Assembly (NCBI RefSeq): GCF_988242995.1
Contig: NZ_OZ547043.1
Strand: one strand, 5' to 3'
DNA: 64,000 bases
Shown here: positions 43,536 through 47,981 of the stretch, one piece after another
Position numbering within the stretch: position 1 is the stretch's first letter
How the letters are laid out: each line of letters opens with the position of its first letter
Notes under the pieces: generated by a model
The model's input: the letters and a program-made list of their open reading frames with translations, nothing else
What the model was told of the DNA's origin: nothing
The model's database searches: none
Position numbers and translations under genes: made by a program

Positions 43536-43774
43536 AGCTAAAATATTAGCTTTAAAATAAAGTATATCTAGCGAATATAATCCAGGACTGGTTGTAATGC
43601 CCGCAATAATTGATTGCGTGAGTAATAAAATTTTTCTTCCATTGTAATCATTTAACCATAAAGTTTATGAGGATATTTTATTTGTGTGTTGATTTTTTTG
43701 TAACGTTCTGTATATTTCGCACCTCTTGTCATACCAGTTATTTTTTTCATTATATTCATAACGTTGATTGAACT

Positions 43775-46700
43775 ATGACCACTGTGAATAAAAAGTTAAA
43801 AAAAACTGCATCTGGCGCGATTACATGGTCAGTAATTGTTACCCAGATATTATCTCCAGTTTCTCTTTCTTTGATTCCGGCAAACAGTTTTGCATCGTCT
43901 GATAATAAAGATGTTACGCAAATTTATGCTAGCGATGAGCGTGCAAATAAAGTGGCCTCATTTGCAGTAAGTGCAGGTCAGAGTCTGGCGAATAATAATG
44001 CAAGTAGTTTTGCTGTAAATACTTTATCAACTCAGGCGACAAAAGAGGTCGTCGATTGGTTGCAACAATATGGCAATGCGCGCATCAAGCTTAATGTCGA
44101 TGATTCTTTTTCCTTGAAGGATTCATCATTCGACTTTTTATATCCATGGCTGGATACTCAGGATTATGTGCTATTCAGTCAGACATCACTACATCGTACT
44201 GATGACCGTAATCAGACCAATATTGGTTTGGGGATTCGTCATTTCACTCCTGATAATGCAATGTTGGGTGCGAATGTTTTCTACGATTATGATTTAAGTC
44301 GCAGCCACTCTCGCGCAGGTTTTGGGGTTGAGTACTGGAGAGATTATTTCAGGTTTGGTGTAAATACCTATTTTGGTTTATCTGACTGGAAGGACAGTCG
44401 GGATATTGATGATTATCTGGAAAGACCCGCAAATGGCTGGGATTTTTCTGCTGAAGGATGGCTACCTGCTTATCCGCAATTAGGGGCATCTATTCAGTTT
44501 GAAAAATATTATGGTAAAAATGTCGGATTATTTGGAAGCGATAATCTGCAGGAAAACCCTTACGCAGTTACTGGGGGAATTTCTTATACACCAGTTCCTC
44601 TGATTAAGTTTTCTGCACAGCATAAGCAAGGACAGAGCAACGTTCACGATACAACCTTTGGTGTTGAGTTTAATTACCGCCCAGGCGTTTCCCTTGCTGA
44701 ACAGCTTAGCAGTGACAATGTTGCAGTTATGCGAGAAGTCCAGAACCGGCGTTATGATTTTGTTGAACGAAATAACAACATTGTTCTGGAGTACAAGAAG
44801 AAGCATGCACTGAAAATCAGCTTACCAGAGTCTGTTCAGGGGGATGGCGAATCAATCATCCCTGTAACACTGACAATCAACAATGCCAGTGGTGGTATCA
44901 AGTCTGTACAGTGGAATGATAGTGTATTCACTGCGGCTGGCGGTAAGATCAGTGGAAATGGCACATCATGGCAGGTCACTTTACCGGCTTATAAAAGCGA
45001 AGGTGTAAATTCGTGGAATGTTGGAGCCACGGTCCAGGATAATAGAGGCAACGTTTCCAACTATGCGGTGATGAATATTAGCGTTATTAATAGTGGTGTC
45101 TCGACAGCGGATTCTTCTTTTATGTTGGATGGAGATTCATCTCCGACGATCTCTGCTGATGGTCAATCCACTCATCCAATAGTATTAAGCCTGAAAGACA
45201 GTAACGGTAAGGCATTAACCGGACTGGCTGATGACATTGAAATGTCAGTGGAATTTACTGCGGATAGCAATAGTGCTCGACAGCGTGAAACGGTAACTGC
45301 CCCGTCATTAGGCGCGGTAGAGGAAATCTCTGCTGGTGTATATCGCTCTGTTCTGACTGCTGGTTCGCAGGCTGGCACAGTACGTGTAACAGCAAAAGTT
45401 CAGGGAAAAACCTTTACTTTGAATATTAAGCAGGCAGCCGTTATTGATAGTGATGTCTCGACAGCGGATTCTTCTTTTACGTTGGATGGTGATTCGTCTC
45501 CGACGATCTCTGCTGATGGTCAATCCACTCATCCAATAGTATTAAGCCTGAAAGACAGTAACGGTAAGGCATTAACCGGACTGGCTGATGACATTGAAAT
45601 GTCAGTGGAATTTACTGCGGATAGCAATAATGCTCGACAGCGTGAAACGGTAACTGCCCCGTCATTAGGCGCGGTAGAGGAAATCTCTGCTGGTGTATAT
45701 CGCTCTGTTCTGACTGCTGGTTCGCAGGCTGGTACGGTACGTGTAACTGCAAAAGTAATGGATAAAACATTTACTCTCAGTATTAAGCAAACAGCAGCAA
45801 CAGAACCTGATTCTGAGGTCAGTGCTGTTTTAACCGCTGCACCAGCAGAACAGGTAGTTGGTTACAATATCAATCTACAACTGGCAGTGAAGGATTCACA
45901 AGGAAATGCAATCACTGGTGATAACACTCTGAGCTTTTATGCTCTTAACCAGGCAGAAGGAGTCGAGTTTGGGGCAGTAACGGAAAAAGACGGTGTCTAT
46001 AGCGCGACAGTAACTTCAAAACGAGCTGGTAAGATTCGGATCGGTGTTAAATCGGGTAGTCACAATTTCTCAGGTATTGAGAAAGAAATCTCCTTTATTG
46101 AAGATCGAACACAGTTCGCATTCTCTCGTATTGAAGCCAGTAAAAATAATGCATTGGCTGACGGCAAACAAAAGAATACGGTGACTGTAAGCCTTGCAGA
46201 TCGTTTCGGCAATGTTGTGCCCGGTTATGCTGTTACGCTGTCCTTACCTGCGGGGGTAACTCAAGTTGGTGGTGAACATGCTGTGTCAACTGACGAAAAC
46301 GGTAATGCTGTTTTTGCGTTAATAAGCTCCACTCCGGGTTCTTACGTGATTAAAGCTCATGCTGGTTCTCAGATGTCTACTGAGTTAACAGTAACCTTTG
46401 CATCAAATATGATCGGAGCTTCACTGTCACTGACGCCTGGAAACAGTAGCTTAATTTCCAATATTCCTGCTAATGGTAAGGATGCTGCGGTATTGAATGT
46501 GCAACTGACAAATACGAATGCGTCGGTCAATGGACAGAAGATTCAGCTCATCACCTCATCTGAAGGATTGTCTGTACCGACAAATATCGTGACTGATTCA
46601 ACAGGGCATGTTTCCGTACCACTTACAACGGTGAGAGCTGGTGAGTATACGGTGGCTGCACGAGTGACTGACGGTTCCCATAGTGTGGAGTCTGGCAGCG

Positions 46701-47683
46701 TTAAGTTAACTTTTGTACCAGATGCTGCTTCCGCAGAACTTACTATGAGTACATCAAAACAGCAGATTGTGGCCGATGGTAGTGAAAGTGCAACAGTGGA
46801 CATTCAGTTGGTTGATGCCAATAACAATGCGTTTACAGGCGATGTGGATTTAACGGTTACACCATCGACGGGAGCATCATTGACCAGTAGTAAACTGCAG
46901 TTGGATGCTCATGGACAGGCAACAACGCAGTTCACAGCATCGAAATCAGGCCAGTACACAATTCAGGCTGAGTATGTTCTAGATGGGAAACGTATAACCG
47001 CAAGCAAAAATATTGATGCCGTGACGGATGTGAAGGAGGCTGTGTTGGAGATCACATCATCTGCATCTTCGGCTGTAGTGAGCGATACCAACAATCTGAT
47101 ATTTACGTTACTGTTGAAAAGTACGTCAGGCGAAGTATTAAGTGGTCGAGTATTGAATATCAAGGCATCTGGGCCGTCCAAATATGGTGCGTTGGTGGTT
47201 GATAAAACCACTGTAACGACTGATGAGTATGGTCTGGCTACGGTAAGCGTACATGGTCGAACGGCTGGTTCGTATAAATTAACGGCGACCTTAGATGAAC
47301 TTGGCAGTGATGTTAGTGAGGTGAAGTCATTCTCTCTGTATGCTGATGAGGCAAATGGAGTATTGACACTGCATAAAGATGGAGGCTATGACACAGATGA
47401 TGGTACTCCAGTGGGGGTTTATGCCCGATTTGTTGACCATTTCGGCAATCCGTTATCTGGTACGGTTGAGTTTTCTGCTGGTAGTGAAGATAGTCCAAAC
47501 TCTCAACTGGTTAAAATGGAGCCTGCTACAGTAACGTTACACTGGACAGGTAATGCAGCCTCGGAGTTCAGCACCTATGAAAGCGGTTATCACTGGATTA
47601 AGGCCAAAATAACGAACAGCAAAAATACATATGAGAAAACAATAAGGACTTATGTTGTAAAGCTCCCTGAAAAGGATAGTTAA
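43775..47683 (+). CDS. intimin/invasin-family inverse-autotransporter adhesin with multiple Ig-like (Big) domains
   Basis: 1302-aa ORF; N-terminal region shares intimin beta-barrel motifs (GxEYWRDYF, ERPANGxD, RYDxVxRNNNIxLEYKK); AT-rich flanks. Confidence 0.85.
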   Translation: MTTVNKKLKKTASGAITWSVIVTQILSPVSLSLIPANSFASSDNKDVTQIYASDERANKVASFAVSAGQSLANNNASSFAVNTLSTQATKEVVDWLQQYGNARIKLNVDDSFSLKDSSFDFLYPWLDTQDYVLFSQTSLHRTDDRNQTNIGLGIRHFTPDNAMLGANVFYDYDLSRSHSRAGFGVEYWRDYFRFGVNTYFGLSDWKDSRDIDDYLERPANGWDFSAEGWLPAYPQLGASIQFEKYYGKNVGLFGSDNLQENPYAVTGGISYTPVPLIKFSAQHKQGQSNVHDTTFGVEFNYRPGVSLAEQLSSDNVAVMREVQNRRYDFVERNNNIVLEYKKKHALKISLPESVQGDGESIIPVTLTINNASGGIKSVQWNDSVFTAAGGKISGNGTSWQVTLPAYKSEGVNSWNVGATVQDNRGNVSNYAVMNISVINSGVSTADSSFMLDGDSSPTISADGQSTHPIVLSLKDSNGKALTGLADDIEMSVEFTADSNSARQRETVTAPSLGAVEEISAGVYRSVLTAGSQAGTVRVTAKVQGKTFTLNIKQAAVIDSDVSTADSSFTLDGDSSPTISADGQSTHPIVLSLKDSNGKALTGLADDIEMSVEFTADSNNARQRETVTAPSLGAVEEISAGVYRSVLTAGSQAGTVRVTAKVMDKTFTLSIKQTAATEPDSEVSAVLTAAPAEQVVGYNINLQLAVKDSQGNAITGDNTLSFYALNQAEGVEFGAVTEKDGVYSATVTSKRAGKIRIGVKSGSHNFSGIEKEISFIEDRTQFAFSRIEASKNNALADGKQKNTVTVSLADRFGNVVPGYAVTLSLPAGVTQVGGEHAVSTDENGNAVFALISSTPGSYVIKAHAGSQMSTELTVTFASNMIGASLSLTPGNSSLISNIPANGKDAAVLNVQLTNTNASVNGQKIQLITSSEGLSVPTNIVTDSTGHVSVPLTTVRAGEYTVAARVTDGSHSVESGSVKLTFVPDAASAELTMSTSKQQIVADGSESATVDIQLVDANNNAFTGDVDLTVTPSTGASLTSSKLQLDAHGQATTQFTASKSGQYTIQAEYVLDGKRITASKNIDAVTDVKEAVLEITSSASSAVVSDTNNLIFTLLLKSTSGEVLSGRVLNIKASGPSKYGALVVDKTTVTTDEYGLATVSVHGRTAGSYKLTATLDELGSDVSEVKSFSLYADEANGVLTLHKDGGYDTDDGTPVGVYARFVDHFGNPLSGTVEFSAGSEDSPNSQLVKMEPATVTLHWTGNAASEFSTYESGYHWIKAKITNSKNTYEKTIRTYVVKLPEKDS
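45098..45811 (+). repeat. in-frame tandem duplication (2 x 357 bp) inside the adhesin gene
   Basis: copies at 45098-45454 and 45455-45811; the first ~300 bp of each are near-identical with only a handful of mismatches. Confidence 0.8.
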
Positions 47684-47695
47684 CAAAACAGAATA

Positions 47696-47721
47696 GGGAG
47701 GGCTAAGCCCTCCCACTTTTT
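47696..47721 (+). terminator. rho-independent terminator after the adhesin gene
   Basis: hairpin gggagggctaagccctccc followed by ACTTTTT. Confidence 0.5.
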
Positions 47722-47981
47722 AATTGAGACGGACTGTTTCTTAAATTCACTTACGTTAGATATGAACTGGTTATTTTTTATAACAATAAAAGACTTTTGA
47801 TTTTTGAATATCAGTAAGTAATAATGATTTACGTCGACAGACTGAACATCTGTTGGTGACTTCTGCGCTAAACGGGGACGTTTATGCGCACATACAATCT
47901 AAACTCTCTTCTCTCTTCACAGATGCAGAAATGCACCTGCGATTCTTTGCATCCAACGTTTGACCTCTGCGGAGGTGAAGC

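Follow-up and report, generated by a model that had tools for sequence, protein, structure and literature searches.

Inverse autotransporters include major colonisation factors and vaccine candidates of Escherichia coli, among them intimin, FdeC and SinH. The only census of the family in E. coli distinguishes seven groups, namely intimin, FdeC, YeeJ and IatA to IatD (Goh et al., 2019; PMC6714894). It describes the set formed by IatC, IatD, YeeJ, IatB and IatA as surface-exposed promoters of biofilm formation that are silent under laboratory growth (PMC6714894). In Yersinia ruckeri, the inverse autotransporters YrIlm and YrInv carry almost identical tandem immunoglobulin (Ig)-like domains, the same feature as in the gene described here, and have been linked to biofilm formation and virulence (cited in PMC6714894). 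The gene in question lies in a 64,000-nucleotide stretch of contig NZ_OZ547043.1 (NCBI RefSeq assembly GCF_988242995.1), referred to below as the window. It encodes a protein of 1302 amino acids (aa) and is located in the early region of a lambdoid prophage. We read it as the gene of a type Ve (inverse) autotransporter carried as accessory prophage cargo, whose product would serve as an adhesin on a stalk that changes length by recombination, and we give this reading a probability of roughly 0.7.

On its sequence, the protein is a type Ve inverse autotransporter, with a barrel, inverted topology and an Ig-like passenger all present. The Pfam model PF11924 (IAT_beta) matches residues 69-334 (E=5.1e-101, model positions 16-279 of 279). 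Residues 97-341 align with the barrel crystal structures of Yersinia invasin (4E1T, E=3.6e-74) and of intimin from enterohaemorrhagic E. coli (4E1S, E=4.7e-64) over their whole length, and the predicted barrel region is a complete one of the 12-strand intimin/invasin type. The passenger lies C-terminal to the barrel, which is the inverted topology, and consists of eight Ig-like domains followed by a tip domain of 113 aa. Seven Big_1/Invasin_D3 domains were recognised by Pfam between residues 445 and 1175, the first two of them being a duplicated unit, and aa 342-441 align with residues 2-104 of the intimin fragment 6TQD (E=1.1e-8). A Pfam scan of residues 1-700 detected no LysM domain. Both the N-terminal inverse-autotransporter barrel and the passenger of many Ig-like domains had been proposed in a first-pass annotation of the DNA, and the profile search against inverse-autotransporter families that it suggested gave support for the barrel and for the Ig-like (Big) domains alike.

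The protein does not belong to any of the named inverse autotransporters in NCBIfam, as its scores fall under every curated cut-off. The best score was obtained with the model of the IatC N-terminus (398 bits against a cut-off of 2400), followed by the models of intimin (333 against 1400), SinH (321 against 999), Ilp (313 against 1125), YrIlm (300 against 750) and YchO/YchP (273 against 508). The gene had been described at first as an intimin/invasin-family adhesin. That description holds for the inverse-autotransporter family as a whole but not for intimin or invasin proper.

The order of predicted signal peptide, barrel, linker and Ig-like passenger is shared with invasin (InvA of Yersinia pseudotuberculosis) and intimin (Eae), and the barrel aligns with theirs over its full length. 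As in invasin, there is no detectable LysM domain. The protein differs from both in that no C-type-lectin-like tip was detected, and from intimin in the setting of its gene, a prophage early region with neither a locus of enterocyte effacement (LEE) nor a Tir receptor in its context. Its stalk is also longer, with nine passenger domains; invasin has five and intimin about four. FdeC (EaeH) shares the long Ig-like passenger and, like the window protein, has neither a detected LysM domain nor a recognised lectin cap, and the duplicated unit is the part of the window protein closest to the solved FdeC fragment 4E9L (E=7.5e-17). FdeC is however encoded by a conserved chromosomal gene (~1415 aa; PMC6714894), whereas the window gene is prophage cargo with an unrelated tip and variable repeats.

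The proteins IatC (Air/EaeX), IatD, YeeJ, IatB/SinH and IatA/YchO are of the same family and have the same barrel as the window protein. YeeJ, IatC and IatD have LysM and lectin domains, neither of which was detected here. Goh et al. saw no variation in repeat number in IatC or IatD (PMC6714894), in contrast to the one to four copies found in the family of the window gene. YrIlm and YrInv belong to another species, are not reported as prophage cargo and have many more repeats. Likeness of a different kind is seen with the outer-membrane moron genes of lambdoid phages (lom, bor/iss and eib, the last encoding immunoglobulin-binding trimeric autotransporters). In each case a surface-protein gene with a terminator and a lower G+C fraction (GC) sits between phage modules, and a bor/iss homologue is present in the same prophage type as the adhesin gene. 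The window gene differs from them in encoding a type Ve protein, in being much larger (3.9 kb) and in occupying the P-nin slot. In the prevalence table of the census, strain EC958 is listed with fdeC, iatA and iatB only (PMC6714894). EC958 carries a 1421-aa copy of the adhesin gene, which is not entered for this strain in that table.

The features of the locus, in window coordinates, are the following.

42834-43535, plus strand: left flank, a lambda P-type replication gene of 233 aa, from the list of open reading frames (ORFs) and the annotation of identical genomes.
43536-43774, plus strand: AT-rich upstream region with GC ~0.34, a candidate own promoter and 5' leader, from composition and sigma-70-like hexamer pairs.
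43775-47683, plus strand: inverse-autotransporter (type Ve) gene, 1302 aa and stop codon, from the ORF list, profile searches and the RefSeq name.
43775-43894, plus strand: predicted signal peptide at about aa 1-40, with a Lys-rich start, a hydrophobic core and ANSFA/SS, read from the translation.
43895-44062, plus strand: short periplasmic segment, aa 41-96, without a LysM match in the Pfam scan.
44063-44797, plus strand: outer-membrane beta-barrel and linker, aa 97-341, from PF11924 and structure alignments.
44798-45097, plus strand: aa 342-441, first Ig-like domain past the barrel, similar to the one next to the barrel in intimin.
45098-45454, plus strand: repeat unit 1, aa 442-560, one Ig-like domain and linker; best register 45082-45438; Invasin_D3 E=4.1e-10.
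45455-45811, plus strand: repeat unit 2, aa 561-679; best DNA register 45439-45795; Invasin_D3 E=2.7e-8.
45812-47341, plus strand: five more Ig-like domains, mutually divergent, aa 680-1189; Big_1/Invasin_D3 E=2.3e-19 to 2.8e-5.
47342-47680, plus strand: C-terminal tip domain, aa 1190-1302 (113 aa), a near-orphan in sequence.
47696-47724, no strand assigned: intrinsic-terminator-like GC-rich hairpin with T-rich tails on both strands, conserved in other alleles.
47723-47854, no strand assigned: window-specific 130-bp spacer in place of an esterase gene and unrelated to it.
47884-48437, plus strand: right flank, a ylcH-like ORF of 33 aa (47884-47985) and ybcN (47982-48437, 151 aa), the start of the nin region.

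The stalk contains a tandem duplication that is far beyond chance. Tandem Repeats Finder reported a single array at 45082-45789, with a period of 357, 2.0 copies, 95% matches, no indels and a score of 1295. When the units are taken as 45098-45454 and 45455-45811, they differ at 26 of 357 positions (92.7% identity), and in the best register (45082-45438 against 45439-45795) at 20 positions (94.4% identity). The differences are unevenly spread: the 236-nt core at unit positions 58-293 holds one of the 20 mismatches and is 99.6% identical, and the last 64 nt hold 14 of the 20. The first-pass annotation had called this a near-perfect 357-bp duplication. It is real and tandem, but near-perfect identity is confined to the core. 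That it is in frame was correctly anticipated, with both units starting in codon phase 0, each encoding 119 aa and the two differing at 10 amino acids.

The number of units varies between strains. By motif count, homologues of 1183, 1302, 1421 and 1540 aa (1183 + 119n) carry one, two, three and four units, respectively, and all of these changes preserve the reading frame. Each copy number from one to four is backed by a chromosome-scale assembly, as listed here.

One copy: L003 (a 4.69-Mb scaffold) and DS566 (a pseudogene).
Two copies: the window, MRSN346647 and S1bESBLb.
Three copies: EC958 and E41-1, with an identical 1421-aa protein (WP_022645049.1).
Four copies: AVS0193, with an uninterrupted 1540-aa translation.

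RefSeq splits the four-copy gene of AVS0193 (L053, NZ_CP124455.1, 2978-7600) into a partial pseudogene and an 'invasin domain 3-containing protein'. This split is probably an annotation inconsistency, as there is no internal stop over the 1540 aa. Copy state was also judged from the hit pattern in a sample of 60 records, taken at even steps from 560 matching ones. Three copies appeared in 36 of them (the EC958 type), two in 12 and one in nine, and the remaining three were disrupted or truncated. Two of the 36 apparent three-copy records, EC958 and E41-1, were checked and found to encode the same 1421-aa protein. Many draft and IMG/VR contigs (L026, L033, L036-L041, L043-L047) start or end exactly inside the 357-bp repeat. 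The repeat thus breaks short-read assemblies, copy numbers from drafts are unreliable, and one-copy calls from short reads may be assembly collapses.

Comparison of the units at the DNA level points to homologous recombination as the likely source of this length variation. Of the 20 diagnostic sites in the single unit of L003, the first two carry the unit-1 state and 17 of the remaining 18 the unit-2 state, the pattern that an unequal crossover predicts. Units 2 and 3 of the four-copy gene do not differ at all (100% identity). In the 91% and 94% alleles, identity among the units of one genome is 97-100%, compared with 91-95% between a unit and its counterparts in other alleles, and the units therefore evolve in concert. 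The potential for recombinational length variation, which had been predicted from the two window units, is thus realised in related genes with one, two, three and four units.

The gene itself was identified in a six-frame ORF list as the 1302-aa ORF at 43775-47683 on the plus strand, and the largest ORF on the opposite strand within these limits has at most 92 aa. In RefSeq genomes that are 99.9-100% identical over 43400-48100, the gene order is the same, the neighbours bear the annotations replication protein P (upstream) and DNA base-flipping protein YbcN (downstream), and the product of the 1302-aa ORF is named 'inverse autotransporter beta domain-containing protein'. On the left, the peaD remnant of the K-12 prophage DLP12 corresponds to window positions 43224-43523 at 99.3% identity, and the homology ends beyond this point. 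GC is 0.34 at 43400-43999, 0.40-0.47 within the adhesin gene and 0.38-0.40 at 47400-47999, all below the 0.50-0.55 of the neighbouring phage genes (O, P and nin). Rfam models gave no RNA element in 43000-48500 at E<=0.1. Thirteen nt after the stop codon, at 47696-47714, there is a hairpin (GGGAGGGCTAAGCCCTCCC) with a T-rich tail; its 8-bp stem has 7 G-C pairs and is followed by ACTTTTTAAT. In other alleles this hairpin stands between convergent adhesin and esterase genes. The original outline of the locus therefore agrees with these results on four counts: a 1302-aa gene between the P homologue and the ybcN/NinB-like gene of the nin region, AT-rich flanks with a dip in GC on either side, a terminator of its own, and a location in the P-to-nin slot of a lambdoid prophage.

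The prophage starts at argU, the gene for tRNA-Arg(UCU) (34814-34890), which is the attachment site of DLP12, and its integrase gene follows at 34906-36069. Its gene order is integrase, recombination genes, repressor, O, P, adhesin, ylcH-ybcN-ninE-ybcO-rusA, Q, lysis genes and head genes. In DLP12 of K-12 (NC_000913, 566.7-572.4 kb) the slot between P and ylcH holds renD, emrE, ylcJ, ybcK, ybcL and ybcM; the corresponding slot of phage PhiR26_1 contains Ren, Rha and PD-lambda-1, a defence gene. This varied content marks the slot between P and ylcH/ybcN as a hot spot for cargo. Neither K-12 DLP12 nor the sequenced lambdoid phages have the adhesin gene in the P-nin slot. In EC958 and DS566 the adhesin cassette occupies the P-nin slot of prophages adjoining icd, and the cassette is thus found at two attachment sites. 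Like a moron, the gene lies between conserved modules, is present in some related prophages and absent from others, and has a GC unlike that of the surrounding phage genes.

In the 91-94% alleles a convergent gene for a 347-aa alpha/beta-hydrolase (PHROG 3341 'esterase'; Abhydrolase_3) lies beyond the shared hairpin, for example at 12303-13346 on the minus strand in L004 and at 16996-18039 on the minus strand in L048 (EC958). Loss of this gene from the window by simple deletion was considered and rejected, as the 130-bp spacer holds no esterase remnant. Other parts of the prophage vary as well. The immunity (repressor) region at 40146-41281 differs from that of MRSN346647 and S1bESBLb, whereas the flanking prophage DNA is 98-99.9% identical; the difference is a mosaic exchange of the immunity module. 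Besides its different immunity region, S1bESBLb has an IS3 insertion after rusA that the window does not, and the window therefore stems from a different, related strain. Further cargo in the window prophage includes a gene for a lipocalin-family lipoprotein after Q (50005-50529, minus strand) and, by homology to L001, a homologue of the iss/bor serum-survival lipoprotein gene after the lysis genes (~55.4-55.7 kb). Only a 93-aa fragment of the major capsid gene is left (61034-61315), as in MRSN346647, and it is followed by a second inserted element with a 428-aa integrase-like ORF (61418-62704). Because the capsid gene is interrupted by this element, the window prophage is defective.

With a probe spanning the repeats, the gene family was found in 559 of 5426 complete E. 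coli genomes (~10%). The 560 matching records comprised 51 with at least 99% identity, one at 95-99% and 508 at 90-95%. In these carriers the gene is always in the P-ybcN slot, in prophages at argU (as in the window) or at icd (as in EC958, of sequence type 131, ST131). A nucleotide search of 50,697 phage records matched the flanks only, and a protein search of the same records returned only two mis-filed entries, one a Salmonella contig with the gene outside a prophage and the other a 2-kb unannotated record at 34% identity. IMG/VR contributed 36 prophage-derived loci.

A mechanism can be proposed by analogy, because the biology of intimin, invasin, FdeC, YeeJ and IatB-D is established. After Sec export, the beta-barrel assembly machinery (BAM) would insert the barrel into the outer membrane, and the passenger would thread out through it as a hairpin. 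The rigid Ig-like stalk would then hold the tip domain tens of nanometres off the cell surface. A typical Ig domain adds ~4 nm, and nine passenger domains would give a reach of roughly 30-35 nm. The tip would bind a host or surface ligand and so promote adhesion or biofilm formation to the benefit of the lysogen. Unequal homologous recombination between units would add or remove one stalk domain at a time and thereby change the reach past O-antigen or capsule.

Expression in the lysogen would require a promoter of the gene's own, because the early rightward promoter pR is repressed. Transcription would start within the conserved AT-rich 240 bp upstream, where promoter-like sigma-70 sites occur at 43552-43581, 43689-43716 and 43726-43753 (the last TTGTCA-16-CATTAT). 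The final ~70 bp 5' of the ATG are 100% identical across alleles whose coding DNA diverges by 6-9%. On prophage induction, antiterminated transcripts from pR would read through the adhesin gene. Under laboratory conditions the upstream region is probably silenced, like those of other E. coli inverse autotransporters; in the census, the others of E. coli SMS-3-5 were undetectable in the wild type during laboratory growth (PMC6714894). Together with the AT-rich composition, this suggests that the gene may be subject to conditional silencing of the H-NS type. We infer from these analogies that the gene would be expressed in the lysogen and mediate adhesion, that is, lysogenic conversion.

Several observations weigh against an expressed adhesin with a recombining stalk. 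The number of sigma-70-like hexamers in the upstream region is at the level of shuffled sequence (11 against 10.1), and there is no clear ribosome-binding site directly upstream of the ATG. The tip showed no C-type-lectin or other binding-domain signature in searches of Pfam, of the PDB by profile and with hhalign. It had no Pfam match and no PDB sequence at E<=10 by profile search, and the sole hhalign match to the internal Ig domains of the protein was to the end of the preceding domain, where the two segments overlap. Searched exhaustively with HMMER, a set of 1.84 billion representatives yielded just 17 matches to the tip. The genuine ones were variants or fragments of the same gene and fragments from Escherichia albertii (a 135-aa fragment family, 54% identical), and the others were low-complexity false matches. 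An AlphaFold2 model of the last 155 residues from a 3-sequence alignment had a predicted local distance difference test score (pLDDT) of 41 and was unusable, too poor for a fold search of the tip. Copy number appears to be stable within a lineage, all 36 EC958-type records in the sample looking three-copy, and the uniformity of this group therefore indicates a slow polymorphism and not a rapid switch. Literature searches by accession and topic returned no paper on the gene. Finally, inactivated copies are present in some complete genomes, namely the following.

L050 11076-14627: pseudogene of DS566, with an internal stop.
L051 3076-7194: copy in 327_BP0021, with a frameshift and, directly downstream, an insertion sequence (IS) element of the IS66 family that replaces the esterase gene.
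NZ_LS999560.1 (hit H121): ISEc52 insertion in the adhesin gene.

Such inactivated copies, found in several complete genomes, would be expected if the gene were silent and decaying cargo, a hitch-hiking remnant without useful expression that owes its spread to its successful prophages and to successful clones, ST131 among them. The defective state of the window prophage, the failure to find a strong promoter or ribosome-binding site, and the undetectable laboratory expression of other E. coli inverse autotransporters (PMC6714894) agree with this explanation. However, among the 559 carrier genomes an uninterrupted ORF of 1183-1540 aa is the rule, and the gene persists intact in degraded, IS-ridden prophage remnants with broken integrase, O, lysis and tail genes. 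The perfect conservation of the 70 bp upstream and the preservation of the frame at every change in repeat number also speak for a gene that is maintained. On balance we consider silent cargo unlikely, although it is the strongest of the competing explanations.

Prophage cargo in the outer membrane often serves the phage, as do Cor, Llp and TraT-like proteins. The adhesin could likewise mask receptors from superinfecting phages or clump host cells, in place of binding host tissue. The slot itself lends some weight to this idea, since in related phages it holds exclusion and defence genes, for instance Ren and PD-lambda-1 in PhiR26_1, and PHROGs v4 lists the protein only as two families of 'unknown function'. 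On the other side, the adhesin matched none of 5027 PADLOC defence models (nor did the esterase of the other alleles), and in lysogens the gene does not share an operon with immunity functions. The characterised relatives are all adhesins or biofilm factors (PMC6714894, PMC5595812). A phage-serving role thus seems improbable, more so than silent cargo. The idea that the tandem duplication is an assembly artefact of a one-copy gene, which the contigs ending inside the repeat and the tendency of short-read assemblers to collapse or mis-join repeats might have favoured, is effectively refuted: the first-pass annotation had itself named collapse to one copy in an independent long-read assembly as the test, and dozens of complete genomes from independent assemblies show the same two-copy arrangement at 99.7-100% identity, forms with one, three and four copies also occur in chromosome-scale assemblies, and the units can be told apart in reads because they differ at 20 positions.

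The preferred reading, a type Ve autotransporter carried as accessory prophage cargo, can be extended. The gene may stand for an eighth E. coli inverse autotransporter, so far overlooked, that is spread by lambdoid prophages, fixed at three copies in genomes of the EC958 (ST131) type, and equipped with a unique tip for a specific host ligand on a stalk whose length is tuned by recombination to O-antigen or capsule. This extended version is tentative, and we would rather doubt it than expect it as a whole. If it were true, the protein would be a colonisation factor acquired by lysogenic conversion and a possible vaccine antigen like SinH and FdeC.

To conclude, the gene is an uncharacterised, prophage-borne member of the known inverse-autotransporter family with a naturally variable stalk length, and not a new kind of protein. 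The first-pass annotation proved correct in what it observed, apart from the near-perfect identity of the repeats, and in each part of its interpretation that could be tested. Its proposed mechanism is unsurprising. The gene is however common, is present in ST131, is missing from the published census, and is experimentally tractable. Should it prove silent or dispensable, it would be just another prophage passenger gene. It is carried by roughly a tenth of the complete E. coli genomes, among them the ST131 reference EC958, under nothing more than a generic database name. The one to four copies of a single stalk domain form a natural series in which the length of an adhesin can be set against surface shielding. 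More generally, the locus indicates that type Ve adhesin genes can move as cargo of lambdoid prophages between attachment sites.

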